Part shown: piece after piece, positions 150 to 24,534 of the stretch | How the letters are laid out: each line of letters starts with the position of its first letter | How positions within the stretch are numbered: the first letter of the stretch is position 1 | IMG/VR virus record: IMGVR_UViG_2698536676_000006 | Source of the DNA: a virus | Taxonomy: Duplodnaviria; Heunggongvirae; Uroviricota; Caudoviricetes | Length of the DNA: 24,534 nt | Strand: one strand, 5' to 3' | Position numbers and translations under genes: made by a program | Notes under the pieces: generated by a model | The model's input: only the letters and a program-made list of their open reading frames with translations | The model's database searches: none | What the model was told of the DNA's origin: nothing

Positions 150-204
150 TGGAGCACCTCAAAAACACCATCATACACTAAATCAGTAAGTTGGCAGCAT
201 CACC
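1..204 (-). mobile_element. IS1 left-end fragment (terminal inverted repeat plus insA 5' region); element continues left of the window
   Basis: Bases 1-204 are the exact reverse complement of 24331-24534 and match my recollection of the first 204 bp of IS1 (GGTGATGCTGCCAACTTACTGAT...CACCGCTTCTCAACC). Confidence 0.9.
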
Positions 205-3795: not shown

Positions 3796-3805
3796 TGTTT
3801 CTCAC

Positions 3806-5222: not shown

Positions 5223-5225
5223 GAT

Positions 5226-6218: not shown

Positions 6219-6241
6219 AAAAAATTTGCTCCTTTGTCTTA

Positions 6242-7078: not shown

Positions 7079-7232
7079 AGTTTTTGCCCCTCTGACTGGT
7101 TCTTCAGTCATGATGGCAAAGCGTAACAGGCTGATACAAAGGGCTTTTGTTGTAAGAAAACGGCCAGAACAGGGGGTTAAGGAGAACGGTTTCGCGCGCG
7201 GGTAATCTTCCTGTAATTACTCAGGGGGAGCA

Positions 7233-8495
7233 ATGATTCAGGACGCTTTTGTGCGCCAGCGTGCGCGGCAACTTTACTGGCAGGGTTATCCGCCCGCAGA
7301 AATATCACGTCTGATGGGAATAAACCCGAACACGATTTATGCGTGGAAAAAACGCGACCAGTGGGATGAAACGCCCCCCGTGCAGCGTGTCACGCAGTCC
7401 ATCGATGCGCGCCTCATCCAGCTTACTGAAAAACAGAATAAAACAGGCGGTGACTTTAAGGAAATAGACCTGCTGACCCGGCAGCTTAAAAAGCTGCATG
7501 ATGGCCAGCCGGATGTGATGGCCGCAGGAAAGAAAGGCCGGGCGAAAAAACTTAAAAATCATTTCACGCCGGAACAGATTGCCGCACTGCGGGAAAAAAT
7601 CATCAGCAGGCTGGAGTGGCATCAGCGGGGCTGGTTTGACTCCCTGACACTTTGCAGGGAAGCCGGGATACGTAACAGGATGATCCTGAAATCCCGACAG
7701 ATTGGGGCGACCTGGTATTTTGCACAGGAAGCTCTGCTGATGGCGCTGCGTGACGATGTGGCGCAACCTTACCAGCGTAACCAGATTTTTTTGTCTGCGT
7801 CGCGTCGTCAGGCGTTCCAGTTTAAAAGCATTATTCAGAAGGTCGCGGCTGAAGTTGATGTGGAGCTGAAAGGGGGCGATAAAATCATCCTCTCCAACGG
7901 CGCAGAGCTGCATTTTCTCGGCACTTCTGCTGCGTCGGCACAGTCCTATACGGGCAATTTTTATTTTGATGAATTTTTCTGGGTCAGTCGCTTTGCTGAA
8001 CTGCGCAAGGTGGCTGGCGCTATGGCAACCCTCAGCGGACTGCGGCGCACCTACTTCTCCACGCCATCCACCGAAACGCACGAGGCGTACGCCTACTGGA
8101 ACGGCGACCGCTGGAACGAGAAAAAGGCCTCGCATAAACGCCAGCGTTTTTCTGTGGACTGGAAAACGCTGCATAACGGGCTTATCTGCCCTGACCGGAC
8201 TTGGCGGCAAATTGTCACGCTGGAAGATGTGGTTAATCACGGCTGGAAACACACCGATATCGACGAAATTCGTGATGAAAACACCGAAGACGAGTTCCTC
8301 AATCTCTATATGTGTGAGTTTGTCCGCGAAGGGGAATCGGCATTTAACCTGAATATCCTGATTGGCTGCGGTGTTGACGGATACGACGACTGGAAAGACT
8401 GGAAACCTTTTGCTCCCCGCCCGATGGGGAATCGTCCGGTATGGATTGGGTATGACGCAAACGGCAGCAGTGGCAACGGCGACATGCCAGCTTGA
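7233..8495 (+). pseudogene. Terminase ATPase subunit (P2 gpP-like), C-terminally truncated
   Basis: 420 aa with N-terminal ...LYWQGYPPAEISRLMGINPNTIYAWKKRDQWDE; P2 gpP is about 590 aa as I recall. The ORF ends shortly after VWIGYDA, and portal Q, cos and the tin/old region expected between P and A are absent. Confidence 0.75.
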
Positions 8496-8560
8496 TGTTG
8501 GTGGAGCCGTCGTCGATACAAATTTTCATGTCGCTTTTCCTTATGTTGATTAATTAATCG

Positions 8561-8670
8561 TTTACGGGATTCTGAAATCCCGTTTTTGCCTGTTTTATGC
8601 GCGCTTCATATATCGCGGCGCGTTTTTTGCTCATTTACGGGATTTGTGAATCCCGTTTCTGTCTGTTTTT
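8561..8670 (+). repeat. Two diverged direct repeats (8561-8596, 8634-8670), each an 8-bp-stem hairpin ACGGGATT-N4-AATCCCGT followed by a T-run
   Basis: Read directly: tttacgggattctgaaatcccgtttttgcctgtttt and tttacgggatttgtgaatcccgtttctgtctgttttt. Confidence 0.6.
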
Positions 8671-11428: not shown

Positions 11429-11434
11429 AGTGAT

Positions 11435-11800
11435 TTACTTCGTCATGCCATTCAGGGTGTCGCGGCAGACTGTAGCCAGCCGCTGAATTTCCAGCACGGT
11501 GTCTTCTGTGTCGGCATGGCGATGTGTGATGCGGATGCTGTCGGCAATCACATCGACGATTGCAGAGGATGGGCGCTGGTAAATGCCAATAACGGACGGG
11601 GTGCCACCTTCAATGCGGTAAAGCCTGTAATTTCCCTCGTGGCTGTCAATCATGTAGCGACCATCAATAACAATCTTTCCGTCAGCGAGCTGCGGTACAG
11701 GCAGGGATTTCAGGTACATGTCATAACGATCACGCACGCGAGCGGCAAGATCTCGTTCTGTGTTGAGCAGGTATTCAAGAAAGTCGTTGGCGAGAATCAT
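11435..11800 (-). CDS. Hypothetical early-operon protein (121 aa) directly upstream of gpA
   Basis: ATG with AGAGGA Shine-Dalgarno; 6-bp gap to the gpA start. Confidence 0.6.
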   Translation of the reverse strand: MILANDFLEYLLNTERDLAARVRDRYDMYLKSLPVPQLADGKIVIDGRYMIDSHEGNYRLYRIEGGTPSVIGIYQRPSSAIVDVIADSIRITHRHADTEDTVLEIQRLATVCRDTLNGMTK

Positions 11801-11872
11801 TGCGGCAATCCTCTTGTTACAGATGTGCGAAGGCCTCCCGCCGCAAGGTGCAGGAAAGGCCCGGAACAGGAA

Positions 11873-12103
11873 TTAATGGAGTTTGTTTTGCTGCTGGATG
11901 AGCTGTTGAAGCTCGTGCAGATCATCCGCCAGATAGCTGAAAACAGAGGCGGAATAAATGTTTGATAGTGCGTGGCTGCGCTCATGCAGCATATTGATGT
12001 GCATGATTTGCGCGACGCGTGATGCGCGGGAAAGTCTGTGGTTGATTTCAGTCTGGATGTGACGACGCTCCGCGATAGTGCGGTGCTGTTTGCGGTCTGC
12101 CAT
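11873..12103 (-). CDS. Hypothetical early-operon protein (76 aa, basic, no Cys)
   Basis: ATG at 12101-12103 with AGAGG upstream; no recognisable domain. Confidence 0.5.
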   Translation of the reverse strand: MADRKQHRTIAERRHIQTEINHRLSRASRVAQIMHINMLHERSHALSNIYSASVFSYLADDLHELQQLIQQQNKLH

Positions 12104-12425
12104 GGTGTGGCCTCTTTGCTCGGTGATAGAAATAACTCACCATCCAGAGTTGAGAATCTCGGGGTGGCGAGACGTACAGGGTTCTCAACACCGGAGAGCA
12201 AAGAATCCGGCCCGACCGAAGTCGGCCCCGTACGCCCCGCCATAATTCTGACGCGAAAAAGACGTGGCAATACAGTGCGCACAAAAAAACCGCTTGCGCG
12301 GTTATGCGCTTTGCTCTGTATCGGGTTGAGAATCCCGGCACCCGTTTTATGAGCTGCAGCGGAAATGTAACCTGACCGATTGAGGCATGGCAAGCGGTTT
12401 TTTTGTGTGTGCATGTTCTGGTTTC
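12104..12425. other. Structured non-coding gap inside the early operon: nested direct and inverted repeats; candidate ncRNA or regulatory/origin-like element
   Basis: GTTGAGAATC[T/C]CGG at about 12150 and 12325, inverted partner GTTCTCAAC at about 12175; CTTTGCTCT / AGAGCAAAG copies; 18-bp inverted repeat cacaaaaaaaccgcttgc at 12281-12298 and 12391-12408; hairpins TCTCG-N6-CGAGA, CCGGA-N9-TCCGG, GGCCCGAC-cgaa-GTCGGCC. Confidence 0.4.
12283..12310 (-). terminator. Candidate rho-independent terminator (AACCGC-gcaa-GCGGTT then TTTTTTTG on the minus strand)
   Basis: Plus strand reads caaaaaaaccgcttgcgcggtt; on the minus strand the hairpin is followed by a 7-T run. Confidence 0.5.
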
Positions 12426-12725
12426 TTACTGGTTCAGAAAAAAATCAAAAACGTTATCGATGCGTTGCAGCAGCTCTTGCTGCATTGCTTCCGGCGTTTC
12501 CGGTTCGCCAGGTGCCCCCAGCGTTGCGCAGAAATCAGCGATTTCATGATGGAGCGTGAGGCGAATGGCAGGAGCCGTGGTTCTGGCGTGCTCCAGCTGA
12601 TCCAGCAGTGCCAGCACAGCAGACGGCGAGAGCATTGCGCGAAATGCCAGTAATTTTTGAGGCGTTGCCATTCGTTGCAGGGCAAATGCCAGTTCGTGTA
12701 GCTTCTGGTGGTTGATGGTGCTCAT
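12426..12725 (-). CDS. Hypothetical protein (99 aa)
   Basis: ATG with GAAGGAAG Shine-Dalgarno; start overlaps the upstream stop (ATGA). Confidence 0.55.
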   Translation of the reverse strand: MSTINHQKLHELAFALQRMATPQKLLAFRAMLSPSAVLALLDQLEHARTTAPAIRLTLHHEIADFCATLGAPGEPETPEAMQQELLQRIDNVFDFFLNQ

Positions 12726-12988
12726 GCTCTGGCTTCCTTCAGTAGCTGGTTAAACATGTGAGTAAGTGGATTGCTACACCCGAACAGCATCGGGTTTACG
12801 TGGTAAGAAGCCTGGCCTCCTGTTTTGCGAGCGCGACCACCTGTGCTGCGGTTTGTTCTGATGACTAAGCCGCCGCGCCAAAGTCGGCGTAACTCAGCAT
12901 TAATGGCTGTGGTTGGGGTATTCAGTGCTGCGGCGATCTCTCCGCCGCTACACCCCGGATGAGTAGCGATGTAGTCCAGAATGGTCAT
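12722..12988 (-). CDS. Putative winged-helix DNA-binding protein (88 aa)
   Basis: MTILDYIATHPGCSGGEIAAALNTPTTAINAELRRLWRGGLVIR looks like an HTH / winged-helix; AGGAG Shine-Dalgarno; ATGA overlap with the upstream gene. Confidence 0.6.
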   Translation of the reverse strand: MTILDYIATHPGCSGGEIAAALNTPTTAINAELRRLWRGGLVIRTNRSTGGRARKTGGQASYHVNPMLFGCSNPLTHMFNQLLKEARA

Positions 12989-13188
12989 CTGCGTGGCTCC
13001 TGTACCTGTCGGATAAGATTCACCCGCGCCACGTTGGTGGCGCAGAAGTAAGTGCCGTCAGTGAGGTAGATGTGGTGTGCATCCTTTTCCGAACGATGTT
13101 TGTCGATAGTGGTAATCAGGCGTTCGTCGACCTCGTATTCGCGCCCTCTGGAGGTAAAGCGAACGACGGGAAAATGCTTAATTGCCAT
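12985..13188 (-). CDS. Hypothetical protein (67 aa)
   Basis: ATG with AAGGGGG Shine-Dalgarno. Confidence 0.5.
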   Translation of the reverse strand: MAIKHFPVVRFTSRGREYEVDERLITTIDKHRSEKDAHHIYLTDGTYFCATNVARVNLIRQVQEPRR

Positions 13189-13242
13189 TGCGCCCCCTTT
13201 GTCCAGTAACCCTATGCGTTAAATACGGCACATTGCGCGTCA

Positions 13243-13629
13243 TCAATGAATACAGCTTGAGAGCGTTCTATCAGGCGGAGATTTGTCAGAAGCTCTGACT
13301 CTTTTGTGTGGTAAGGCGTTATCAGGTATTTGCCGTGCAGTTCGGCAATAATGGTGTATTGCAGCATCATTGCTGAACCAAGAATATAAAATGCAGCGTC
13401 CAATGCTGGACGGATTCATGGCTGCAACTGTTGACTGTGTTTTAAGAGTGTCGATTTCTTTGCTCTGTTCCTCAATAACTTTGGCTGCTTCAGAGGCGGC
13501 TATTGCGATGGTCAGTGCGTAAAGCGCTGCCATATGTTGATTATCTTTCTGGGCTGCCCTGGACAGCTTGTCTTGCTCTGCTGACACTATTTTTAATGTA
13601 TTGATAATATTTTTTTCTTTTGCGTTCAT
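13243..13629 (-). CDS. Hypothetical protein (128 aa); N-terminal half coiled-coil-like, C-terminal half possibly frameshifted
   Basis: Strong start (GGAG then ATG at 13627-13629); a 63-aa ORF in another frame (13212-13403, TTG start) overlaps the 3' half. Confidence 0.45.
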   Translation of the reverse strand: MNAKEKNIINTLKIVSAEQDKLSRAAQKDNQHMAALYALTIAIAASEAAKVIEEQSKEIDTLKTQSTVAAMNPSSIGRCILYSWFSNDAAIHHYCRTARQIPDNALPHKRVRASDKSPPDRTLSSCIH

Positions 13630-13721
13630 TTTATATCTCCGTTATTTACGTGTGCGAATACCTCCGCGAATGCGGATAGTTTTCAGGTTTTCGGGTTTAA
13701 TCTGGTGTTTTGTTTAAGCTG

Positions 13722-13835
13722 TTATTTGTCAGTAAAAAAGCGTTCAATCTTTTTTACTGAATGAATAATTCGCATAATCCCAATGGCGCAGGCCACCGAA
13801 ATAATCAGAACAAGCCATGAGATAAATATACTCAT
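13722..13835 (-). CDS. Small hydrophobic peptide (37 aa, MSIFISWLVLIISVACAIGIMRIIHSVKKIERFFTDK), predicted single transmembrane helix
   Basis: Not in the ORF track (under 60 aa). Hand-translated: ATG at 13833-13835 overlaps the stop of the 80-aa gene upstream (ATGA coupling); a 20-residue hydrophobic stretch is followed by a basic tail. Confidence 0.4.
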   Translation of the reverse strand: MSIFISWLVLIISVACAIGIMRIIHSVKKIERFFTDK

Positions 13836-14074
13836 GCGATATTCCCCAGCTTATACGGTTCAATGTGTTCCCCGCATTCTGCGGCACAGATCAGCTCGGA
13901 AAGTTCGTTAAGTGCATCCAGATCATCAGCGTAAAAAGCAACGTCATACAAACTCCGGATTGCCCTGGTCAATGAGTCACGGGCTGCATGTTCAGCATGA
14001 GCGCCTGATGCACTTAAGCGAAAATAAAATCGTTCAAGTGCTTTGTTAATGAGAGTTTTATATTCTTTGCCCAT
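13832..14074 (-). CDS. Hypothetical protein (80 aa)
   Basis: ATG with AAGGG Shine-Dalgarno. Confidence 0.55.
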   Translation of the reverse strand: MGKEYKTLINKALERFYFRLSASGAHAEHAARDSLTRAIRSLYDVAFYADDLDALNELSELICAAECGEHIEPYKLGNIA

Positions 14075-14085
14075 CGCAACGCCCT

Positions 14086-14364
14086 TTAATCTGCTTTCTG
14101 AATTTCAGCTTCTGAATCCATACAAATAATTTCGATATAGGGTTCATCGCCATTAACCTGACGTGCCTTTTCAGCTTCGCTAATGATTTCTCGTACGGTC
14201 TGGTACGGAAGCTCCACAGTCAGGCGCGTACCGTTCAGATAAACGTAAGTAGTTGCGTTTTTTTCGGATGGAACAACTCCGTCAATGGCTGATGCGCGTA
14301 ATAACAGTTCACCGCGAAAATCAATAAAACGGATAAATACACCTTGTGCATGCTCTTTGGTCAT
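14086..14364 (-). CDS. Hypothetical protein (92 aa from the ATG at 14362-14364)
   Basis: AGGTG Shine-Dalgarno 5 nt upstream of that ATG; the tool's 14424 start is TTG and overlaps the upstream gene. Confidence 0.55.
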   Translation of the reverse strand: MTKEHAQGVFIRFIDFRGELLLRASAIDGVVPSEKNATTYVYLNGTRLTVELPYQTVREIISEAEKARQVNGDEPYIEIICMDSEAEIQKAD

Positions 14365-14374
14365 AAAGCACCTG

Positions 14375-14725
14375 TTATAAATCAGCCTGTTTAATAAAAC
14401 TTTGCCCGCGAAGCAGACGATCAACCGTGCGAAGTGCTTCGTATAATGTGAAATCCTGCCCGAAGTGATTGTCGCCGCAGTTCAATGCAAAAATGCGGTT
14501 TCCGGTAAACGGATTGCGTGGGCATTTGTGGATCACGATTCCAGCTTTCTCAATCAGCCAGGCATGCTCGCCGATTTGTTTTACAGCGTGGCCATCCGGT
14601 GTTGCGTGCGTCTCGTTCAGGTTATAGCGACTGTTACTACGTGATGCACTGGTAGCGACGTGGTGTACATGGCGTTCTACGCTATTACGAAATTTGGAGT
14701 ATGGATTATTAGCGTTTTTTTTCAT
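14375..14725 (-). CDS. Hypothetical protein (116 aa, His/Cys-containing)
   Basis: ORF with ATG start in operon context. Confidence 0.55.
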   Translation of the reverse strand: MKKNANNPYSKFRNSVERHVHHVATSASRSNSRYNLNETHATPDGHAVKQIGEHAWLIEKAGIVIHKCPRNPFTGNRIFALNCGDNHFGQDFTLYEALRTVDRLLRGQSFIKQADL

Positions 14726-14746
14726 GATGGTGCTCTGTTCATTGTT

Positions 14747-14950
14747 TTAGCTGTTAGCCAAAGCGTCTTTTAACATCGCCACAAGGTTTACTTCAGGCTT
14801 TTCCATTTTGGCGCGTTTGGGGCGGATAATAATTCGACCGTCAGCCAACATCTTTTTGCATGTATTAAGAGGGATACCTGTTATCTCTGCATATTTCTGC
14901 AGGGATACATAGGGGGCATTCACATTGATATTGATGGTTATACCTGACAT
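14747..14950 (-). CDS. Cox/Apl-like excisionase-type HTH regulator
   Basis: 67 aa; ...APYVSLQKYAEITGIPLNTCKKMLADGRI... resembles the P2 Cox HTH region as I recall it; correct position in the early operon. Confidence 0.6.
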   Translation of the reverse strand: MSGITININVNAPYVSLQKYAEITGIPLNTCKKMLADGRIIIRPKRAKMEKPEVNLVAMLKDALANS

Positions 14951-14966
14951 CCCACTAGCCTCCTGA

Positions 14967-15173
14967 TCAGGAAGATTTGTTTTGTTCTTTCTGGGTTAGC
15001 TCTAGGCCGCGAAGGAAGATCATGCGCGCCATGTTAGAGGATGAGCGTTGTTCTTTAGCTGCCATTTCATCAATGACGGCTCGCTCCTCGAGGGACAGCC
15101 GAAGTGCCAGTCTTGGACCTGTGGCGGTGTTACGCGGAATGCGTGATCTGGTATCGTGAAGAACTTGTTTCAT
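14967..15173 (-). CDS. Putative ribbon-helix-helix regulator, first gene of the early leftward operon
   Basis: 68 aa; LALRLSLEERAVIDEMAAKEQRSSSNMARMIFLRGL fits the RHH beta-strand/helix pattern; no clear Shine-Dalgarno. Confidence 0.5.
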   Translation of the reverse strand: MKQVLHDTRSRIPRNTATGPRLALRLSLEERAVIDEMAAKEQRSSSNMARMIFLRGLELTQKEQNKSS

Positions 15174-15248
15174 AGTGGTATATTGTGATCATCTAATAGC
15201 TCGTGAAATCATTTGGTATCAAAAAAGATACCTGTCAAGGTTTTTTGT
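15174..15248. promoter_or_regulatory. Immunity-switch intergenic region between divergent early operon and repressor; 18-bp palindrome GGTATC-aaaaaa-GATACC (15215-15232) as candidate operator
   Basis: Perfect palindrome read directly; a TTGACA hexamer on the minus strand (15233-15238) abuts it. Confidence 0.5.
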
Positions 15249-15653
15249 ATGAAAAATGATATTGGTCAGCGGTTGCGTGAGGAAAGGGAAAGATTGGGAC
15301 TTAGTCAAGTTGCCATGAGCGACATTGGTGGAGTCAAAAAGCTAACTCAGCTTAGATATGAGAAAGGAGATAGCTTTCCTGATGCTGCGTATTTGGCAGC
15401 GCTGTCTCGTTTTGGCCTTGATGTTCAGTATGTTGTGTTGGGAATTCACTCACCTGAAACTTATAACGATGATGAGCAGGAGTTGATTACTCGCTTTCGA
15501 GCAGCTTCGTTAGATGTGAAAAACGCGGTGATTGGGGCTTTAAAAGGTGCGATCAGTGAAAAGGAAACTCAGCCATCAGGACGTGAGTTAAATATTTCTG
15601 GTGGTAATAACCGTATCGCTGGTCGTGACTATAACGAAACTAAGGGTAGGTGA
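15249..15653 (+). CDS. CI/C-type immunity repressor (XRE-family HTH)
   Basis: MKNDIGQRLREERERLGLSQVAMSDIGGVKKLTQLRYEKGDSFPDAAYLAALSRFGLDV is a canonical XRE HTH; ATG at 15249 preferred over the tool's TTG at 15213; integrase-proximal, divergent from the early operon. Confidence 0.75.
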   Translation: MKNDIGQRLREERERLGLSQVAMSDIGGVKKLTQLRYEKGDSFPDAAYLAALSRFGLDVQYVVLGIHSPETYNDDEQELITRFRAASLDVKNAVIGALKGAISEKETQPSGRELNISGGNNRIAGRDYNETKGR

Positions 15654-15668
15654 TAGTAGGGAGGTGAC

Positions 15669-16319
15669 ATGGCCGTCAACTCAAACGGTTCAAACAATCG
15701 CGTTGCTGGGCGTGATTTTCACGAAAAGAATATTCAGATAGAGCGATATGATGGTTCTCATACCGTCAATATCGCAATCCCTTCGAATAATGATGATGAC
15801 GATCGCCCTTTGCTTAAGGCTCAGCGTAAGGAGCTAAATAGCTTGGTTGCTGCTATTGCAGAAGCTAGCAATACTGAAGCGTTTATTATTTGGCAAAAAG
15901 TACATGCGGAGATTGGTGTAGCTGGTATTGATGATATGACAGTAAATCAATATAAAACAGCGGAGAGTTTTCTGCATGCAATGCTTGAGCGATGTAAAGA
16001 TCATGATGCCTGTAAGGCTCTTGTAAGTTTATTACTACGTAACAGTGAAGACTGTGGACTTCGACAAAAACTTCTGCGGTATTGCCATATCAATTTCGGT
16101 ACAGGACGTTTAAACGATCTTACTCGTTCTCAGTTACAGTCTGCATTGTCGTGGTTAGAGCAACAATCGGCATCAAGCCACACAGAGAGTTCGACCTTAC
16201 CAGAAGTCCGACTTCGTGCTTCAGAATTAATCCGACTTTATCCAAAAGAAATAATATTCTTTATCTGCGTAGGGGTTTTGGTAGGCGGTGTCATTTCTAG
16301 GGCGTTTTTTAATTTGTAA
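15669..16319 (+). CDS. Cargo gene: 216-aa protein with C-terminal transmembrane anchor (candidate superinfection-exclusion / abortive-infection protein)
   Basis: GGGAGG Shine-Dalgarno; C-terminal IIFFICVGVLVGGVISRAFF hydrophobic helix; N-terminal SNGSNNRVAGRDFHE echoes the repressor C-terminus ISGGNNRIAGRDYNE; lies where P2 has repressor and integrase adjacent. Confidence 0.65.
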   Translation: MAVNSNGSNNRVAGRDFHEKNIQIERYDGSHTVNIAIPSNNDDDDRPLLKAQRKELNSLVAAIAEASNTEAFIIWQKVHAEIGVAGIDDMTVNQYKTAESFLHAMLERCKDHDACKALVSLLLRNSEDCGLRQKLLRYCHINFGTGRLNDLTRSQLQSALSWLEQQSASSHTESSTLPEVRLRASELIRLYPKEIIFFICVGVLVGGVISRAFFNL

Positions 16320-16348
16320 TCTTACTTGAGCTAAATTGAGGTAATGAT

Positions 16349-16696
16349 ATGAAAGTAAAAAAGGTTCAACTATTAGTTACTTTTTTATCTATGTTTTCTT
16401 TTTCCGCCGTCGCAATGCCTTTTAAAACTATTGAACGTGAGAGTTTCAATGGGGTATGGCCATTTAATACTGATGAGGTTCAATTACAGTGTCTTGATGG
16501 TAATCCTTATGTGATGAATTTTGACGATAATAAGTTATATGCACTTACAGGTTTGGCTCGAATAAAAGGTAAAACATTTGGTGCGTTACCGTTAGATAAC
16601 AATAATCCATTTTGGCTAGATAATGATGCCGCCCCAGGGTTAAAAAAGAGCCTGGGGGATGTCACTAAGGCTGCATTTGATTTATGTGATAAGTAA
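16349..16696 (+). CDS. Cargo gene: small secreted protein with signal peptide and two Cys
   Basis: MKVKKVQLLVTFLSMFSFSAVA-MP signal-peptide-like N-terminus; GAGG Shine-Dalgarno; Cys in QCLDG and DLCDK. Possibly DUF2511-like; unverified. Confidence 0.65.
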   Translation: MKVKKVQLLVTFLSMFSFSAVAMPFKTIERESFNGVWPFNTDEVQLQCLDGNPYVMNFDDNKLYALTGLARIKGKTFGALPLDNNNPFWLDNDAAPGLKKSLGDVTKAAFDLCDK

Positions 16697-16701
16697 CTAA
16701 A

Positions 16702-17703
16702 ATGTCGGTTCGTAAGATTCCATCAGGTAAATGGCTTTGCGAATGTTATCCCTACGGGGCATCGGGAAAACGCATTCGTAAACAGTTTGCGACAAAAAGT
16801 GAGGCGCTCTCTTATGAGCGCCGTTTAATGAATAGTAGAGTTGGAGACGAGTTTCAAGATGGTTCTGGTCCTCGTCTTTCTGAGTTGATTGCTCGTTGGT
16901 TTGAGATGTACGGTAAAACCTTGTCCTCTGGTGCAGAGCGCAAAGTCAAACTTGAGGCGATTTGTTCCAGGCTGGGAGATCCATTTGCTTCTCAGTTTGA
17001 CAAAAATATGTTTGCCACTTATCGGGAAAGAAGGTTATCAGGAGAGTGGAATCCCAAGGGGAAGAAAAAACTTAGTGAAGCAACCGTTAATCGCGAGCAG
17101 TCATATCTACATGCTGTTTTTGCCGAACTGAAGCGCCTTGGGGAGTGGTCTGGTGAAAACCCCCTGACTGGTATTCGCAAGTTTCGTGAGGAAGAAAAGG
17201 AACTGGCGTTTCTGTATGTAGATGAGATTGAACGCCTTCTGATTGCGTGTGATGAGTCACGGAATAAAGATTTGGGGGTTGTTGTCCGTATTGGGCTTGC
17301 GACTGGTGCTCGGTGGAGTGAAGCAGAAGGGTTAAAGCAATCTCAAGTACTGCCCGGTCGAATCACATTTGTTAAAACTAAAGGAAAGAAGAACCGCACT
17401 GTACCGATTTCACCTCAATTGCAGGCTATGCTTCCCAAAAAACGAGGAGCGCTATTTTCACCATGTTATGAGGCTTTTGACGCTGCAATTAAGAGAGCGA
17501 AGATCGAGCTTCCTGATGGGCAATTAACTCATGTGCTACGTCACACGTTTGCCAGTCATTTTATGATGCGGGGCGGAAATATTCTTGTGTTGCAAAAAAT
17601 ACTGGGGCATAGCGATATAAAAATGACTATGCGTTATGCGCATTTTGCTCCAGGTCATTTAGAGGCTGCTGTTGAATTGAACCCTTTTGACAATAGAGGG
17701 TAA
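16702..17703 (+). CDS. int: P2-type tyrosine integrase
   Basis: 333 aa; TGARWSEAEGLK, ITFVKTKGKKNRTVPIS, HVLRHTFASHFMMRGGNILVLQKILGH, YAHFAPGHL align with P2 Int as I recall it. Confidence 0.9.
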   Translation: MSVRKIPSGKWLCECYPYGASGKRIRKQFATKSEALSYERRLMNSRVGDEFQDGSGPRLSELIARWFEMYGKTLSSGAERKVKLEAICSRLGDPFASQFDKNMFATYRERRLSGEWNPKGKKKLSEATVNREQSYLHAVFAELKRLGEWSGENPLTGIRKFREEEKELAFLYVDEIERLLIACDESRNKDLGVVVRIGLATGARWSEAEGLKQSQVLPGRITFVKTKGKKNRTVPISPQLQAMLPKKRGALFSPCYEAFDAAIKRAKIELPDGQLTHVLRHTFASHFMMRGGNILVLQKILGHSDIKMTMRYAHFAPGHLEAAVELNPFDNRG

Positions 17704-17809
17704 AAAGTGGCGATAAAAAGTGACAATAGATTCAAATGGCGTTGTATAGAGCCATTTTCAAAGTTAATAAAATCATAAGGTTATGATTTATAAATGGTGG
17801 TTGATAGTT

Positions 17810-17864
17810 TTTAAAATCCCTCGGCGTTCGCGCTGTGCGGGTTCAAGTCCCGCTCCGGGTACCA
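17810..17864 (+). tRNA. 3' fragment (about 55 nt, from the anticodon loop to CCA) of tRNA-Leu(UAA), leuZ-like; integration-site core, not a complete tRNA
   Basis: TTTAAAATCCCTCGGCGTTCGCGCTGTGCGGGTTCAAGTCCCGCTCCGGGTACCA: T-arm GCGGG-TTCAAGT-CCCGC, long variable arm, acceptor 3' strand plus ACCA; no 5' half upstream. Confidence 0.65.
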
Positions 17865-17905
17865 TGGGAAAGACAAGAATAATCAAAGCAATAAGCAGTG
17901 TCGTG

Positions 17906-17930
17906 AAACCACCTACGGGTGGTTTTTTTG
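17906..17930 (+). terminator. Rho-independent terminator (AAACCACC-tacg-GGTGGTTT plus T-run)
   Basis: Read directly from sequence. Confidence 0.6.
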
Positions 17931-17964
17931 TGCCTGAAATTCACGCCCTGTGCATATCCTGTGC

Positions 17965-18846
17965 TCACGGGGTGCAATGAGCCGCAATCTCCAGCCTGGC
18001 AATGCCGAATCGAACGTGTCGCCTCCAGCATAGAGAACCAGGCCGCTTTGCCTGTTTTCCGGTACTCTTCCGGGAAGGGTGGCCTGCTGAGCAAGTTGTA
18101 ATGCTCTGGCCGCCCTTAGTACAAAGTTGCTTAATTCGTGCAATCACCTCATCTCTGTACTTCTGGTGTCCGCGCATAGCCCTTGGATGGGCAATTCTGA
18201 AACAGATTGTATTACCTGTTTTGAACTCCCACAGCTTCCCCGGAATGACTGAAGAAGTCTCATAACCGCCCAGCTCAGTAAGCACCTGTTTAATGATGTA
18301 GTCTGTTCTCCGGGCTCCGGATGCAAAGATCATGAAATCAGGCTCAAGGTGTTTAATTTGTACCGCCAGCAGCTTCAGCGAGGCTAATATGACTTCCTGC
18401 ACTTCATTTTGAGGGCGATTGAGAGGGGTCAGTCCGTCGTAATCCCACGCCAGTAGATTGGCATACACGATAGCCTGAGGAGGAATATTAAGCTCCCGGG
18501 CCAGCCTGAAATGATATTGCGTGAAGCGGCTACGTGATTTGAGGTTGGTGGTGCCATCATTTTGTACCGGAAGATGTTTCCTGTAACGATCTACAGCTTC
18601 TTCAACCACCTGCCCGATGGTGACGTCAGGCATAAGTCCCAACACCCGTGATATCGTATTCTTACCATTCAGCGTATTCCAGCCTGCGGTTTCACGTCTA
18701 ACCAGCATGATTTTTACCGGTGAATGCCAGTATTCTTCAAACGGCACGGGTAAAAAGACGCCTGAGTATTTATCTTCATTCAGGTTAAATGACTGGGCGT
18801 CAACTTCCTGTAATATCCGTTTGTACGCGTCTAATAGCCTTTCCAT
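17965..18846 (-). CDS. Hypothetical protein (293 aa) between the tRNA fragment and the P4-type integrase; C-terminal 50 aa low-complexity, possibly non-native
   Basis: Long ORF, no family recognised; Cys/Arg/Ser-rich tail. Confidence 0.55.
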   Translation of the reverse strand: MERLLDAYKRILQEVDAQSFNLNEDKYSGVFLPVPFEEYWHSPVKIMLVRRETAGWNTLNGKNTISRVLGLMPDVTIGQVVEEAVDRYRKHLPVQNDGTTNLKSRSRFTQYHFRLARELNIPPQAIVYANLLAWDYDGLTPLNRPQNEVQEVILASLKLLAVQIKHLEPDFMIFASGARRTDYIIKQVLTELGGYETSSVIPGKLWEFKTGNTICFRIAHPRAMRGHQKYRDEVIARIKQLCTKGGQSITTCSAGHPSRKSTGKQAKRPGSLCWRRHVRFGIARLEIAAHCTP

Positions 18847-18926
18847 TCTTCAATCCTGCCCCGTAATAAAAACACCTTCAGATATATATTATTTTCATGA
18901 TATCAATCAGATATATGAGGATAAAT

Positions 18927-20126
18927 ATGCAAAAATCCTTCCGATTCACCAATTCATCCATCAAAGCCCTTCCGGCAAACACAGATACCCGATCTACAGA
19001 GCTTGAGGTATCCGATACTGAGGTCATTGGCCTCAAATGCCTCTCAGGTCGAACGGGTAACAAACGTTTCCTCCTGCGCTACACATTCCACGGTACCAAA
19101 AAAAGTATCAGTATTGGCAGATTCCCTGAAATTGATGTGGGGACAGCCCGTCAGATAGCTCGTCGTCACAAGGAGGCGATTGCACTGGGAAATGACCCTA
19201 AGGCAGAACGCGATAATTATCGTGCTATGCCAACGCTTAGTGAGTTTTTTCACCAGACCTATGTTCCGTTCATCAAACGCCATAAAAAGTCCTGGGATAA
19301 GGATGTTCAGCGTTTCACGCAATACATTGAACCTTGTCTGGGGAAGATACGTTACTGTGACCTTCGGGCCCGGGAAATCCAGCAGGTGCTTTTCGACATG
19401 CTTGAGGGTCGTATTCACGGGCAGCAATATGCGCCGTCTACCTGTAACAGAGCCCTTGCTATTCTGAAAACGATGGGGCGTTATGCGTTGCGACAGGATG
19501 TGCTGGAAAAGAATGAAGCCGATAAGATCCCTTTACTGAAAGAGAATAATCAGCGGACGCGCTTTTTTGATGCTGATGAGATCAGGCGCATTCTTGACGC
19601 TGCTACCCAATATCCCAACAAAGCTGCCGGGGGATTGATAGCCATGTTGTTGTTAACCGGTACACGCAAAACAGAAATGCTTAATGTCAGGCATGAACAT
19701 ATCGACCGGGCCAATCGTACTCTGTTCATTCCTTATACAAAAAATGGTCGCAGTCGGACGGTATATCTAAGCGATGCCGCATTATCGATTATTGATGCTA
19801 TCCCACGAGTTGGCAGTAATCCGTATCTGTTCGCCATTAAGGATAATGGCAAACCGATATCGGAACCCCGATGGGCATATGAAAAAATACTGGCACAGTG
19901 CGGTATAGACAAGAATGAAGTCTGTTTTCACACCACACGTCATTCTGTTGCCTCTTTACTGGTTTCGAGTGGTCAATTCAGCCTGTATGACGTTAAAGCC
20001 CAACTGGCGCATGCCAGTATTCAGAGTACAGAACGTTACGCGAAATTAACACCGGAACGTATGCGTCAGACAGGGCAGGGAGTGACTGACCTGCTTCTGA
20101 ATACTGCGGCTACGAAGCAGATGTGA
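18927..20126 (+). CDS. int: P4-family tyrosine integrase (genomic-island type)
   Basis: N-terminal arm-binding domain (...GLKCLSGRTGNKRFLLRYTFHGTKKSISIGRFPEIDVGTARQIARRHKEAIALGNDPKA) and catalytic region (...TRHSVASLL...ERYAKL); ATG at 18927 with GAGG Shine-Dalgarno preferred over tool start 18897. Confidence 0.85.
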   Translation: MQKSFRFTNSSIKALPANTDTRSTELEVSDTEVIGLKCLSGRTGNKRFLLRYTFHGTKKSISIGRFPEIDVGTARQIARRHKEAIALGNDPKAERDNYRAMPTLSEFFHQTYVPFIKRHKKSWDKDVQRFTQYIEPCLGKIRYCDLRAREIQQVLFDMLEGRIHGQQYAPSTCNRALAILKTMGRYALRQDVLEKNEADKIPLLKENNQRTRFFDADEIRRILDAATQYPNKAAGGLIAMLLLTGTRKTEMLNVRHEHIDRANRTLFIPYTKNGRSRTVYLSDAALSIIDAIPRVGSNPYLFAIKDNGKPISEPRWAYEKILAQCGIDKNEVCFHTTRHSVASLLVSSGQFSLYDVKAQLAHASIQSTERYAKLTPERMRQTGQGVTDLLLNTAATKQM

Positions 20127-20162
20127 CTACTTTTTAGCAAACTATAAATATGGAGAATGAGG

Positions 20163-20399
20163 ATGCATTTAAAATGCCCACAGTGTGGCAGTTGTAATAC
20201 ATTGATAAGTTCAGCAGGAAAACTGCCATCGATAACCGATAATAAACACTCTGGGTATATTAGCCTGGAGTTTTTACCTGAAATACTGAAAGAAATTATT
20301 AAGGCTATTAAAAAACTATTTGGATTCCTTGAACAGTGTGAAAGGAATAATGCTCCAGTGCTTATCTGTATGGACTGTGGATATTATGAAAGAATTTAA
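20163..20399 (+). CDS. Small zinc-ribbon protein (CPQCGSC ... CMDCGYYE)
   Basis: Two CxxC pairs about 60 residues apart; GGAG Shine-Dalgarno; has its own terminator. Confidence 0.6.
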   Translation: MHLKCPQCGSCNTLISSAGKLPSITDNKHSGYISLEFLPEILKEIIKAIKKLFGFLEQCERNNAPVLICMDCGYYERI

Positions 20400-20446
20400 A
20401 TAGAAAACCAATAACTGTAAATAATAGTTATGCGGATGTATAAAAA

Positions 20447-20476
20447 CCTCGATACGTTAATCGTATCGGGTTTTTT
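20447..20476 (+). terminator. Rho-independent terminator (CGATACG-ttaat-CGTATCG plus TTTTTT)
   Basis: Read directly from sequence. Confidence 0.6.
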
Positions 20477-20494
20477 GTTTATGAGGATTATTCA

Positions 20495-20866
20495 ATGAAA
20501 TTTGTCTCGAACTGGCAAGACCTGCCGTCGCTCCTTCTTCCGGAGTCAGTAATGAGTCTGTTGAAAACAGAGCTGGTACTCCCATTTGAAGATGAATACT
20601 CTGCAATGAGTTTCTGGGATGAAGTCGGGGTGACATTAATATATGTCGAGCCCGATGATGTACCTGAAGATATTAAAGCGCAGGTATTAAATGTGATTCA
20701 TCAGTTAATTGCAAATCCAGAATTTGTAGTCCGTCTGACAGATGACTATTACCTGATGCTTTCTGTTACGGAAGATAACGGGAACGGTATTTATCTGTTA
20801 TTTCACCCCGATTGCCCTCTGAAGGGTATTGATTTATTAATTTCTATGGCCGAATCACGCTATTAA
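20495..20866 (+). CDS. Operon gene 1: acidic 123-aa hypothetical protein
   Basis: GAGGA Shine-Dalgarno; Asp/Glu-rich; AT-rich codon usage. Confidence 0.65.
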   Translation: MKFVSNWQDLPSLLLPESVMSLLKTELVLPFEDEYSAMSFWDEVGVTLIYVEPDDVPEDIKAQVLNVIHQLIANPEFVVRLTDDYYLMLSVTEDNGNGIYLLFHPDCPLKGIDLLISMAESRY

Positions 20867-20891
20867 ACACAAGCAAAACCAGGAACGCAAA

Positions 20892-21425
20892 ATGAGTAAA
20901 TCAAAATTAGTTAAAAATAATGTTGAGTCAGTTTCGAAGGAGATTAAAAATGAGGCAGAGGTTATTCATGAAAATCTCAGTGCAGATGAACAAACATTAT
21001 CTGATGTAAAAGACTATCAGTTGCTCATTGAAACAGGCCAGGCAGAAAAAATCAGTCCTAAGGCAAGTGGTATGCTGACATGGCAACTGGCGATATCAGA
21101 GGTGGATAATGAACTTTATCTTCGTCTGGTGGCAAATGGCTGTGGAGGGTTGTTCTCTAAGGACTGGATCTCACTTTCAAAGATTGCAACTGTTCTGGAA
21201 ACACAACCTGCTACCGGCTTCTCATCCGGAGTATTCAGGCCGCTATTCAAAGGGGCAAGCGCCAACAATGCAGGTTTTCTGGCTGCTGTTTTACGCTCCC
21301 CGGATATATGTCTGCTGGAGGCACATCCAGAGAAGTTATTTACTCATGTATTATACCCGGACTGGAGGGAGCGGTTGAATAAACTTAATACGATCAGTAG
21401 CCAGGAAAAGATTACAGAGGATTAA
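20892..21425 (+). CDS. Operon gene 2: 177-aa hypothetical protein
   Basis: AGGAA Shine-Dalgarno; 25-bp gap from gene 1. Confidence 0.65.
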   Translation: MSKSKLVKNNVESVSKEIKNEAEVIHENLSADEQTLSDVKDYQLLIETGQAEKISPKASGMLTWQLAISEVDNELYLRLVANGCGGLFSKDWISLSKIATVLETQPATGFSSGVFRPLFKGASANNAGFLAAVLRSPDICLLEAHPEKLFTHVLYPDWRERLNKLNTISSQEKITED

Positions 21426-21497
21426 TTTATTTCCTGCACTGTTATACAACCAGAAATCACCACACACCACTATTTACTTTCTAAAGGAAAATTTATT

Positions 21498-21932
21498 ATG
21501 CAAACCCAATATGCCTTAAAACAGGCAGGATTAACTCTGCCTGTTACTAAAGAATTTCAGCAGCATATTACTACTCTTCTGGCAAATCAGGTTTTACAAA
21601 AAATAACTGAGGCAGTGGTTATTAATTTCCGTGATCCGGACTACAGTGCAGAATCCGGGGGCTTTCATCCCGTTGAAATACGGTTTATCCGTAAGAATAA
21701 TGAATGGTATTTTGATTATGTCACAGATTTTAGTTATATGGGGCGTGTCTACCCTGAGCTGGAAAAAGAAATTGATTTTTGCTGGTCGGGGAATTATGTC
21801 TTCCATTATCTGATTGGGGATATTTCACTGGCAGCAGAGAGGAATGAACTCTGGTCCCTGTGGGAGCGTAATTTTATGGAGTATCTCTCTATGGGGATTT
21901 ACCGGGTAACGGTAACTGTGGAAAGTTGTTGA
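21498..21932 (+). CDS. Operon gene 3: 144-aa hypothetical protein (Trp/Tyr/Phe-rich)
   Basis: AAAGGA Shine-Dalgarno; 72-bp gap with no terminator before it. Confidence 0.65.
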   Translation: MQTQYALKQAGLTLPVTKEFQQHITTLLANQVLQKITEAVVINFRDPDYSAESGGFHPVEIRFIRKNNEWYFDYVTDFSYMGRVYPELEKEIDFCWSGNYVFHYLIGDISLAAERNELWSLWERNFMEYLSMGIYRVTVTVESC

Positions 21933-22045
21933 CCCGTTATGAACAGGAAGAAAGCGGGCGGCTTTGTAATCTACTGCATGTGGCGTGCATCACAGCATGG
22001 AGATGATGTCTCTTTTTCCTAGCTGTTCGCATAAACAAGTGCAGA

Positions 22046-22076
22046 CACGGGGGATCTCAGATCCCTCGTGGTTTTT
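22046..22076 (+). terminator. Rho-independent terminator closing the three-gene operon (CACGGGGGATCT / AGATCCCTCGTG then GTTTTTG)
   Basis: Read directly from sequence. Confidence 0.55.
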
Positions 22077-22233
22077 GCCCCCTATGGAGCATTCTCCTGT
22101 AGCAGGGTGATAACGGTTAATCCATTACCCCAACTACAGTATTACACCGGTAATAAATGTTCATGAATACAGTTAGTTATGTGGGTTTTGAGGTGGGCTA
22201 TGTCATCGTTGACGATAACTGAAGGTTTTACAG

Positions 22234-22461
22234 ATGTATAAAACTCGCGGTGAAAGGATCGCAGAAAGGCTGTGCTGGATATTACTTCAACTGTATACCG
22301 GTAATACGGTATCGGTTAATGATATATGTCAGCGTTTCGCGGTCAGTCGCCGAACCGGACAGCGTGATTTGTTGAGAGTTGAAACTGTAACGGAAACTAT
22401 TTCACCTGGAAGGGTAAGGCTGGCAAGTTTGATAAGGGAACGAGTTAGACGAAATTTTTAA
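22234..22461 (+). CDS. Small HTH protein (75 aa) resembling the N-terminal DNA-binding domain of a WYL/DeoR-type regulator
   Basis: ERIAERLCWILLQLYTGNTVSVNDICQRFAVSRRTGQRDLLRVE parallels [40 protein letters not shown] of the WYL protein at 23423-24325. Confidence 0.5.
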   Translation: MYKTRGERIAERLCWILLQLYTGNTVSVNDICQRFAVSRRTGQRDLLRVETVTETISPGRVRLASLIRERVRRNF

Positions 22462-22496
22462 TCGAATCCATATCAATACTATAAAATATGAAAATT

Positions 22497-22522
22497 AACG
22501 GGAGTAAATATATACTCCCGTT
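22497..22522. terminator. Hairpin between convergent genes (AACGGGAGTA-N6-TACTCCCGTT), T-rich on both sides
   Basis: 10-bp perfect stem read directly. Confidence 0.5.
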
Positions 22523-22542
22523 ATAATGCAACCTTTTTTTAA

Positions 22543-23361
22543 CTACTCAAATGATATTAATTTAGGTGCGACAGTGTTTTTATGATGTGTTGAATTTGCA
22601 AGATTAATAATATCATGAAATGATTTCATGTCGTCGTCAGTGATTTCTAGGGCTGGATCAGCTAAATCGGCACAGGTAACATTTAACCAGTGTGTTAATG
22701 AATCAATCCTGTTTGAAGTAATATATTCAGTGTGACCAATATTCCACTTCCAGTTGATTATCCGAGCAGGTCTGAATCTCACCTCCCGAACCCCAATTGG
22801 CGTTACTGACTCTACGAGAGGGTATATCGTGTTAAGTACTTTATCATGTTCACTGTAGATATTTAAATGCCCCATTTTTGAACCGTAAGCCATTTTCATT
22901 ATGTTCTCTGTATAACTTGTTATTGGGGTGGCTCCGGCCATAGAGATTGTTAAGAGAATATTATCATTTTTAATATAGGGTAATGTATTGTTTATTAATC
23001 GAGTCCCTAAAGAATGACCCATTATGATCACATTACGCTTTTCTTTAACGTATATCTCGTTTATTACGTGTGCTAATTTTTCTCTGTTATTAACTGCTGC
23101 TTTCGTTGCATTATACCAGGCCTGACGCGCTTTAAATGGAATGGAGATTGATGACAATAAAGGAGATGTTCTCAGGGGGAAGAGAGTATATAACCCCCAC
23201 TTGTTCGCTATGTCAGAACTTAATATGGATAGTAGATTTGCCGATTCCCATTTATAGTATCTGACATCAAGGCCACACCCTGCTTTAATTCGGTTAAACC
23301 ATGATATATCATTTTCGGTCAGAAACCCTGATACAACAAGAAGAACCGGGCATTTTTTCAT
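22543..23361 (-). CDS. Alpha/beta-hydrolase-fold serine hydrolase (esterase/lipase-like), candidate effector
   Basis: 272 aa; IIMGHSLGTRL carries a G-x-S-x-G nucleophile elbow; GGAG Shine-Dalgarno; AT-rich. Confidence 0.7.
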   Translation of the reverse strand: MKKCPVLLVVSGFLTENDISWFNRIKAGCGLDVRYYKWESANLLSILSSDIANKWGLYTLFPLRTSPLLSSISIPFKARQAWYNATKAAVNNREKLAHVINEIYVKEKRNVIIMGHSLGTRLINNTLPYIKNDNILLTISMAGATPITSYTENIMKMAYGSKMGHLNIYSEHDKVLNTIYPLVESVTPIGVREVRFRPARIINWKWNIGHTEYITSNRIDSLTHWLNVTCADLADPALEITDDDMKSFHDIINLANSTHHKNTVAPKLISFE

Positions 23362-23422
23362 GGTAACTCCATTTTTTAGCTTACAAAAATAGCACTCAAT
23401 GAAAATTATATTATCCGTGTCA

Positions 23423-24325
23423 TTACGGGGCGTTACTTGGCTGGGTGTAACGTTTCAGTGCGGATTGTATATCTTCAGCAAGTTGTTGACGGATTGAGGC
23501 CGGTTGTATTACTTCGACATCCGGTATCCAGTATTTCATTAAAGGCATTATCTGATCTGTGTGTGTTACACGTGATATCACCAGTAAATCGCCAGACCGG
23601 GAAGTATGAATTATTTCCTGTCCTGGCAATAGATGACGGTGGGTAAACCACGGAGCAACATGTGCGGAAACTGAAATAAGAGCTTCGATAAGGTCTTCGC
23701 TATACCAGATACCATCTGTCTTTTCTATTTTTTCATTAATTTCGGGGATTATCCTGAAAGAGATATTACTCATGCAAACGTCTTTGACAGATGAGATAAC
23801 AAAGCTTTTTAATGTACTGTCATGGGCGGCAGCGAGATACCACAATCCGTTGTCATTAACCAGTCTGTATGGCTCAACAGCCCGAAACTCTTTATCTTTG
23901 TAATTAAAATTTACTTTCTTCTGTGACAGGATGGCATCGGATAATACATTCAGAATTGACATGAATGATCCGCAGTTTTCGTATGGACGTTGTTTTATCA
24001 GAAACGGGTTGTTTTTCGTGTTACCTAACAAAATACTCAGTAGTCTGTCATCCCAGCGAGGGAACAGCCCTTCAATACCCAGGATGCGCGTGAAATGACG
24101 TAAATCAGCATTGCTGCGTTGACCGAGAACACCGTCAGACAGGCGATAGCGACCATTTTGTCGAATCAGATTAAGATAGGACAGGCGCTGAGTAAGATCA
24201 CGACGGATAGTTTTTTCGCAAACGTTAAATTCCTCAGATAACTCCCGGACGGCTAGTGACTCACCATTGTTCAGGCGAGTTAATATCAATCCGAGTCGAT
24301 ATCCAAGTTTATCGTGCTTACCCAT
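23423..24325 (-). CDS. WYL-domain transcriptional regulator (HTH-WYL architecture, BrxR/CapW-like)
   Basis: 300 aa; N-terminal HTH ([35 protein letters not shown]), central LWYL motif ([12 protein letters not shown]); ATG lies 5 bp from the IS1 end. Confidence 0.75.
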
Positions 24326-24330
24326 TCATT

Positions 24331-24534
24331 GGTGATGCTGCCAACTTACTGATTTAGTGTATGATGGTGTTTTTGAGGTGCTCCAGTGGCTTCTGTTTCT
24401 ATCAGCTGTCCCTCCTGTTCAGCTACTGACGGGGTGGTGCGTAACGGCAAAAGCACCGCCGGACATCAGCGCTATCTCTGCTCTCACTGCCGTAAAACAT
24501 GGCAACTGCAGTTCACTTACACCGCTTCTCAACC
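24331..24534 (+). mobile_element. IS1 left-end fragment; element continues right of the window
   Basis: GGTGATGCTGCCAACTTACTGATTTAGTGTATGATGGTG...CACCGCTTCTCAACC matches the IS1 5' end. Confidence 0.9.
24386..24534 (+). CDS. insA: IS1 InsA, 5' partial
   Basis: GTG GCT TCT GTT TCT ATC AGC TGT CCC..., the InsA N-terminus. Confidence 0.75.

Follow-up and report, generated by a model that had tools for sequence, protein, structure and literature searches.

A conserved three-gene operon beside the integrase of a piPolB-deleted pipolin derivative in Escherichia coli is probably element backbone rather than cargo

The IMG/VR virus record IMGVR_UViG_2698536676_000006 is a stretch of 24,534 nucleotides, called here the window, and it carries three consecutive genes (g1, g2 and g3, together the trio) beside a tyrosine integrase. 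In this study, we believed that the trio is a conserved backbone operon of a pipolin-type island at the E. coli tRNA-Leu (glyW-cysT-leuZ)/yecA site, that it is not cargo, and that it serves the life cycle of the element, and we give this reading a probability of about 0.6. Its parts do not stand equally firm. We are confident that the trio is a core module of pipolin-type elements, and a life-cycle role linked to the integrase is proposed tentatively, at slightly less than even odds. As a backbone operon, the trio is tied to the att-proximal integrase both physically and evolutionarily.

The alignment of g2 was scanned against one genome per species, which gave 80 loci, and all open reading frames (ORFs) of these loci were subjected to iterative profile searches. 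The loci came from Enterobacterales, Vibrio, Photobacterium, Aliivibrio, Aeromonas, Shewanella, Moritella, Colwellia, Thalassotalea, Oceanospirillales, Pseudomonas and a few lineages outside the Gammaproteobacteria. Adjacent to g2, g1 was found in 64 of the 80 loci and DUF2787, the family of g3, in 66, and the full trio was present in 56. A tyrosine recombinase lay within 1 kb in 61 of the 80 loci, and 10 further loci were truncated so that the integrase was not visible. An earlier interpretation made from the letters of the window alone (the sequence-only reading) had made much depend on the trio being conserved as a unit next to the integrase, and these counts bear out that conservation. The usual order, on one strand, was int, g1, g2 and DUF2787, and it was kept over Enterobacterales, Vibrionales, Aeromonadales, Alteromonadales and Oceanospirillales, with a spacer of 19-137 nt between int and g1 outside the Enterobacteriaceae. 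When E. coli was compared with Vibrio or Shewanella, the orthologues of g1, g2, DUF2787 and the integrase were all about 33-48% identical, and in the 35 complete loci the matrices of pairwise identity for these four proteins correlated with r = 0.85-0.90. Such a correlation is the pattern expected of backbone genes rather than of exchangeable cargo.

A second enterobacterial family of the module was also observed (loci L013-L026; Enterobacter, Buttiauxella, Kluyvera, Pseudocitrobacter and others). Its integrase lies divergently upstream, and it combines g1 and a g2 of reduced length (143 aa) with DUF2787, two WYL genes and a homologue of the protein hyp108; no piPolB lies within 10 kb.

The trio, its integrase and the signals around them are as follows.

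18897-20126, plus strand: att-proximal tyrosine integrase ('IntSXT' in the pipolin literature), matching PF13356 (3e-14), PF00589 (4e-23) and phrog_1
20448-20470 with a T-run to 20478, plus strand: bidirectional terminator-like hairpin from a consensus scan, 17 nt 5' of the g1 Shine-Dalgarno sequence
20495-20866, plus strand: g1, an acidic orphan of 123 aa with an isoelectric point (pI) of 4.05
20892-21425, plus strand: g2, 177 aa, modelled as a disordered tail (residues 1-41), a beta-sheet domain (42-94), a winged-helix domain (95-157) and a C-terminal helix
21498-21932, plus strand: g3, 144 aa, DUF2787 family, acidic with a pI of 4.9
22046-22070 with a T-run to 22080, plus strand: terminator-like hairpin closing the operon, 11-bp stem with 7 GC pairs

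Much of what the sequence-only reading had described at this level stands. The ORFs and Shine-Dalgarno motifs confirmed three linked plus-strand genes of 123, 177 and 144 aa, each with its own ribosome-binding signal (GAGGA for g1, AGGAA for g2 and AAGGAA for g3, 7-10 nt 5' of each start) and with gaps of 25 nt between g1 and g2 and 72 nt between g2 and g3. The bracketing terminators correspond to the hairpins at 20448-20470 and 22046-22070; in the consensus scan, 9 terminator-like sites were observed in the region versus 1.7 +/- 1.4 in shuffled sequence. The trio is indeed AT-rich relative to the prophage (41-42% G+C versus 50-60% in the P2 structural genes), and the gene upstream is a P4/SXT-type integrase with PF13356 and PF00589, as had been claimed. 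The integrase start according to RefSeq is window 18927. A zinc-ribbon ORF between the integrase and the first terminator had been overlooked.

The hairpin between the integrase and g1 (20448-20478) may act as an insulator or attenuator between integrase and trio transcription. Five further enterobacterial genera keep it, along with the Shine-Dalgarno sequence and the g1 start, and diverge in the sequence 5' of it; Buttiauxella, Citrobacter, Scandinavium and Enterobacter are among those that conserve it. Hairpins unrelated in sequence occur in the int-g1 spacers of Vibrio, Shewanella, Aeromonas, Thalassotalea and Amphritea (loci L027-L068). This recurrence suggests a conserved attenuator or insulator at this point. 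A 17-nt near-repeat, GATGTATAAAA(A)C(C)TCG, was noticed at 20435-20452, just 5' of the g1 hairpin, and at 22232-22248, at the start of a 75-aa helix-turn-helix (HTH) ORF. It could be a common promoter or operator element, or chance. The repeat search for candidate g2 sites found nothing beyond this near-repeat of uncertain meaning, and an Rfam scan of 17000-24534 found no RNA family.

The window is a piece of E. coli chromosome, 100% identical from end to end with NZ_LR883050.1 (isolate L1_E925). The order in that genome is pgsA, tRNA-Gly/Cys/Leu, a P2-like prophage, an att copy, the island, a third repeat copy and yecA. There are three copies of the tRNA-Leu-derived repeat, in the intact tRNA-Leu, at the prophage/island junction and on the yecA side, and the island of the window is thus bounded by terminal att-like repeats at the tRNA-Leu of the pgsA/yecA site. 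Studies have shown that E. coli pipolins insert at the tRNA-Leu between pgsA and yecA (Mateo-Caceres & Redrejo-Rodriguez, NAR 2024, PMC11551731), and that a myovirus prophage uses the same att site in strains H10407, 2014EL-1346-6 and 99-3165, the last two being named as carriers of both pipolin and myovirus (Flament-Simon et al. 2020, PMC7385651). Positions 17437-22552 of the window, which hold the trio and its immediate flanks, are base-for-base identical to strain 99-3165. The island of 99-3165 continues with an 866-aa gene with weak PolB family matches, followed by an excisionase and a second integrase. The piPolB residues with experimentally shown importance, namely D59 and E61 (exonuclease), D368 (polymerase), K613-H614 and K623-T-R625-G (KTRG), are all present in this gene.

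The genome of the window itself has no piPolB gene inside the element. In NZ_LR883050.1, the insertion sequence IS1 begins about 5 nt 5' of the start codon of the WYL gene, at window position ~24331, and tblastn between the WYL gene and yecA found no piPolB, no 212-aa gene (hyp212) and no Xis. The same search for an IntP2 orthologue gave just weak cross-matches to the other two integrases. The loss of piPolB, the 212-aa gene, Xis and IntP2 is consistent with an IS1-associated deletion. The gammaproteobacterial pipolin core by the integration site has been described as IntSXT, DUF2787, WYL and '2 orphan proteins', with exchangeable defence cargo lying distally (PMC11551731). Of the pipolin core set, the IntSXT-type integrase, DUF2787, WYL and two orphans are present here, and IntP2 and Xis, which the sister strains have, are absent. 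The element is best filed as a piPolB-deleted pipolin derivative rather than as a pipolin in the strict sense. Among 5426 complete E. coli genomes, the trio region was found in 350 and piPolB in 296, which fits the window as a pipolin derivative that lost its polymerase.

This identity overturns two parts of the sequence-only reading, which had placed the trio in a variable cargo slot of a P4-family island and had called it a candidate for an undescribed system. P4-like satellites are said to carry defence hotspots next to their integrases. The integrase of the window does combine PF13356 (Arm-DNA-bind_3) with PF00589, as in P4-type tyrosine integrases, and the pipolin literature calls it IntSXT. 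In neither genome did the RefSeq annotation of the island show a P4 hallmark (alpha primase-helicase, sid/psu/delta), and none was among the Pfam and PHROG matches of the scanned island proteins, a cos site not having been searched for. We rejected the P4 satellite identity on these grounds, together with the piPolB of the sister strains and the named pipolin carriers. A variable slot does not agree with the data either, as core genes are listed at this position (PMC11551731) and the order is the same in 56/80 loci. As for novelty, DUF2787 and the '2 orphan proteins' are already in the literature as core, with their function still unassigned there.

piPolB was found within 10 kb in 30 of the 80 loci; this count covers flanks that pipolins can exceed, and only att-delimited loci were used as evidence for elements without piPolB. 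In Aeromonas media DSM 4881 (L053, 7205-12808), 51-nt repeats of the tRNA-Leu 3' end lie 5553 nt apart at the same Gly-Cys-Leu tRNA cluster as in E. coli. The 5.5-kb element between them consists of Int and the genes for g1, a YkvA-like protein, g2, DUF2787, a NERD-like protein and a Fic protein, two of these genes being cargo, and it has no piPolB. Its DUF2787 has a divergent C-terminus and is overlapped by the NERD-like gene on the opposite strand. A similar small att-delimited element was found in Moritella at tRNA-Leu(CAA) (L032), and in Buttiauxella an 18-kb island at tRNA-Phe with 54-nt repeats (L017) carries the second enterobacterial version of the trio, again with no piPolB. These att-delimited elements indicate that the trio goes with the integrase and not with the polymerase.

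The same evidence bears on the proposal that the trio is a replication accessory of piPolB, in which g2 would bind the origin or DNA ends and the acidic partners would be chaperones or processivity factors. Winged-helix domains are common among replication initiators, and piPolB does lie within 10 kb in the 30 loci given above. In Gammaproteobacteria, DUF2787 and the orphan genes have also been reported to be associated with piPolB, with strong statistical support (PMC11551731). Nevertheless, the att-delimited L053 and L017 and the genome of the window have the trio without piPolB, and the trio adjoins the integrase, while piPolB stands 2-10 kb off in either orientation. We regard this proposal as quite improbable.

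The protein g3 matched PF10980 (DUF2787) with E 3.8e-40 and 137.5 bits against a cut-off of 27 bits, over profile positions 2-126 of 126. In the PDB it matched 2W56 (VC0508, encoded on VSP-II) at 4e-26 and 2V1L (VC1805, encoded on VPI-2) at 3e-24 over residues 14-132. VC1805 (2V1L) has been described as a monomer that is Mam33-like and a homologue of human p32. By homology to this solved close relative, g3 is assigned a p32/Mam33-like fold. Relatives of DUF2787 (120 listed of 217 matches) are single-domain proteins of ~140 aa, bar a few fragments or chimeric calls. In three non-pipolin islands (L082, L084 and L090; Salmonella and Providencia chromosomes and a plasmid-borne island of E. coli), DUF2787 is followed by a protein of 173-179 aa with the pattern QGDLD.LCG...HW, which resembles the signature of a cysteine peptidase; in Salmonella and E. 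coli, RadC and an integrase come next. The idea that the 173-177-aa neighbour in the Salmonella and Providencia islands is g2 was rejected, and the two are unrelated.

For g2, the structure model predicts a beta-domain and a winged helix, and its relatives share the invariant motif G.S.NNAGFLAAVLR. The g2 model had no match at E <= 0.001 among the viral structures of BFVD. The protein g1 (~120 aa) is very acidic and has a conserved motif; no family, fold match or fusion partner was detected for it, and its structure model, with a predicted local distance difference test (pLDDT) score of 56.7, is too poor for use. All 136 g1 representatives were single-domain, bar a few fragments or chimeric calls, and fusions thus give no clue to function. 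The appearance of the motif prompted a SUKH/SMI1-KNR4-like idea for g1, which was rejected as there was no profile or fold match. The idea of g1 as a hidden paralogue of DUF2787 was likewise dropped, since hhalign showed no relationship among the profiles of g1, g2, DUF2787, hyp108, Xis and WYL.

Neither g1 nor g2 matched Pfam, NCBIfam or PADLOC, and in PHROGs they matched only families of unknown function. When 31 relatives of g1 and 35 of g2 were compared with Pfam, only chance matches came up, and nothing in the PDB matched g1 or g2, whether a single sequence or a profile was used. The sequence-only reading had recognised no family in any of the three proteins, which holds for g1 and g2 by the Pfam, NCBIfam and PADLOC results and fails for g3, a member of Pfam DUF2787. 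The median pI across the loci was 4.3 for g1, 5.3 for g2, 4.6 for g3 and 9.8 for the integrase; g1 and g3 were consistently acidic and g2 mostly so. No recognisable enzymatic or membrane domain was found in g1, g2 or g3.

The acidity of the proteins favours an anti-defence or establishment module, in which g1 and DUF2787 would imitate DNA or proteins, or serve as decoys, to neutralise restriction or other immunity on entry into a new cell (ArdA/Ocr-type), with g2 as a regulator. It is seen for g1 and g3 in every lineage and for g2 in most, and DUF2787 stands beside RadC, AlpA and integrases in other islands, plasmid-borne ones included. Neighbourhoods of the RadC/AlpA type often hold anti-restriction genes. 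The pipolin paper also remarks that evasion of defence might be the task of some pipolin genes (PMC11551731). However, no similarity in sequence or fold to known anti-restriction or anti-defence proteins was found, and the structure of VC1805 shows a monomer that has a p32-like sheet and lacks the elongated shape of a DNA mimic. Phages and plasmids are places where anti-defence genes are usually common, whereas g2 matched 0 of 50,697 phage genomes and 2 of 72,556 plasmids. The strict synteny with the integrase, kept despite about 30-40% sequence identity, also looks more like backbone, and we therefore consider the anti-defence explanation unlikely.

A new three-gene anti-phage defence system is the idea raised by the sequence-only reading. 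The island is of a defence-rich type, and the trio is compact, low in G+C relative to the prophage, uncharacterised and near a WYL regulator. Against this idea, searches of PADLOC-DB v2 with g1, g2, g3 and the zinc-ribbon ORF gave no match at E up to 0.1, and no effector domain (nuclease, NTPase, protease, TIR/SIR2) or membrane domain was found in the trio. The trio is invariant backbone that co-diverges with the integrase, while the defence systems of pipolins form an exchangeable distal module. The defence idea is therefore not upheld, and we regard it as highly improbable. An addiction module of the toxin-antitoxin type, which would prevent loss of the island, would suit small and tightly linked genes on a mobile element, but no similarity to toxin or antitoxin families was found, and its chances seem to us very slight. 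Intact copies of the trio in decayed elements and in the 5.5-kb minimal element speak neither for nor against addiction.

We come back to the trio as an integrase-linked backbone operon. In the mechanism that we propose, the trio and the integrase would control excision and integration, or would establish or maintain the excised form. The strongly acidic g1 and the p32/Mam33-like DUF2787 would bind a basic partner, for example the integrase (pI about 9.8), and g2, with its predicted beta-domain and winged helix, would be a docking component for nucleic acid or protein. Transcription of the trio would most likely come from the integrase side, gated by the int-g1 hairpin. Several points weigh against this reading. 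No homology or experiment links g1, g2 or g3 to recombination, regulation or replication, and the equation of g1 and g2 with the published '2 orphan proteins' is made by position only. Shared phylogeny would by itself account for part of the correlation between the identity matrices. In other islands, DUF2787 is also found in the absence of g1 and g2, beside RadC, AlpA and integrases, and its role need not be specific to this integrase. A bolder version is possible but doubtful: the integrase and the acidic trio could be a minimal chassis that integrates autonomously, with sizes down to 5.5 kb and tRNA-Leu or tRNA-Phe genes as targets, and it would be older and more widespread than the piPolB that it sometimes carries. 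The trio would then be a new kind of integrase-accessory complex, made of a winged-helix protein, a p32-like protein and a second acidic protein, that sets the direction or timing of recombination, and pipolins would be the polymerase-bearing part of a larger family of islands.

The remaining features of the island within the window are the following.

17805-17939, plus strand: att direct-repeat copy, the 3' half of tRNA-Leu(UAA) with downstream bases, at the prophage/island junction
17965-18846, minus strand: uracil-DNA-glycosylase-like gene, with cluster members named 'Uracil-DNA glycosylase-like domain-containing protein'
20157-20399, plus strand: 80-aa zinc-ribbon ORF (CxxC...CxxC) with weak Zn-ribbon Pfam matches; phrog_32727
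22234-22461, plus strand: 75-aa HTH ORF, like the N-terminus of a WYL regulator (HTH_11, HTH_DeoR; phrog_13105)
22543-23361, minus strand: DUF726 alpha/beta-hydrolase-like gene with PF05277 and LCAT matches
23423-24325, minus strand: HTH-WYL-WCX transcriptional regulator (PF08220, PF13280, PF25583; PADLOC WYL models)
24331-24534, plus strand: start of IS1, position inferred by mapping; the IS1 coding sequence runs from window 24386 in NZ_LR883050.1

The att repeat is 137 nt long, with copies at 17706-17840 and 37306-37442 of locus L001 (window = L001 + 99), and the window holds no intact tRNA. Type-4 uracil-DNA glycosylase (UDG) is frequent among E. coli pipolins (PMC7385651). The UDG-like gene has 293 aa here versus 246 aa in most members of its cluster, and RefSeq annotates it as a pseudogene with the C-terminus missing; it is probably a pseudogene in this island. 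Its 3' end points at the att repeat. The zinc-ribbon ORF, named 'predicted nucleic-acid-binding Zn-ribbon protein' in IMG, occurred in 11 of 81 loci, all of the enterobacterial lineage. The 75-aa HTH ORF has an identical position across all enterobacterial loci and is a conserved member of the neighbourhood. The WYL regulator is a pipolin core gene (PMC11551731). The DUF726 gene, present in only 6/81 loci, is a lineage-specific insert within the core region. It is paired with the HTH-WYL-WCX regulator on the minus strand (22543-24325) and could be an effector under WYL control. Related genomes cease to match at window 24330.

Beyond the window, the rest of the island in NZ_LR883050.1 (2014617-2041200, L092) is cargo. 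It contains a type I restriction-modification system (a YecA-family gene separates S from R), an M48 peptidase, a pair of DUF262 genes and a full-length Hhe, as well as the mobile elements IS100 and IS3, the latter with a group II intron. The Hhe of 99-3165 is instead cut short by another IS1. The P2-like prophage (window 1-17703) is defective, and 99-3165 has an intact version. Its genes for the tail fibre and baseplate (521-5980), among which gpV is truncated, adjoin a capsid fragment and gpO (6242-7111), the terminase gpP is shortened to 420 aa (7233-8495), the portal gene is absent, and gpA follows immediately (8606-11428). Another IS1 lies inside the prophage in NZ_LR883050.1, just left of the window.

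The element, its site, the adjacent prophage, the core of DUF2787 plus orphans and the sister strains are already published. What is new is modest, namely the winged-helix model of g2, the int-g1-g2-DUF2787 arrangement in no fewer than 56 of the 80 loci taken at species level, the trio in att-delimited elements without piPolB down to 5.5 kb, and the loss of piPolB from this island. Pipolins are recently recognised carriers of defence islands. If the trio were an integrase-accessory or establishment module, it would be a natural experimental handle on pipolin mobility. Its persistence without piPolB bears on what defines the element, the polymerase or the chassis of integrase and trio. The trio is no undescribed defence system, and the real defence cargo of the island lies outside the window.

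Several known systems can be set beside the trio and its island. VC0508 and VC1805 belong to the same Pfam family as g3 and are encoded on integrative islands, although those islands are not pipolins; we take them to have P4/SXT-type integrases. Like winged-helix recombination directionality factors or excisionases (lambda Xis, AlpA/HTH_17 type), g2 is a small protein with a predicted winged helix beside a tyrosine integrase. In contrast to them, it is a larger protein that also has a beta-domain and a disordered tail; its charge is acidic to neutral where theirs is basic, and its sequence shows no similarity to theirs. Moreover, intact pipolins already have an HTH_17 excisionase beside the second integrase. 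With P4-like satellites, the island has in common a P4/SXT-type integrase with Arm-DNA-bind_3, insertion at tRNA-Leu and a P2-like prophage as neighbour. However, the integrase-proximal genes are invariant here, and the sister elements carry piPolB. Compared with published pipolins, this genome is without piPolB, Xis and IntP2 and has IS1 right after the WYL gene; the published pipolin work gave the two orphan genes neither function nor fold. The likeness to the pipolin core module extends to the tRNA-Leu site, the att repeats, the UDG-like gene, IntSXT, DUF2787, WYL and the adjacent P2-like myovirus, and in both the core lies by the integration site and the cargo is distal.

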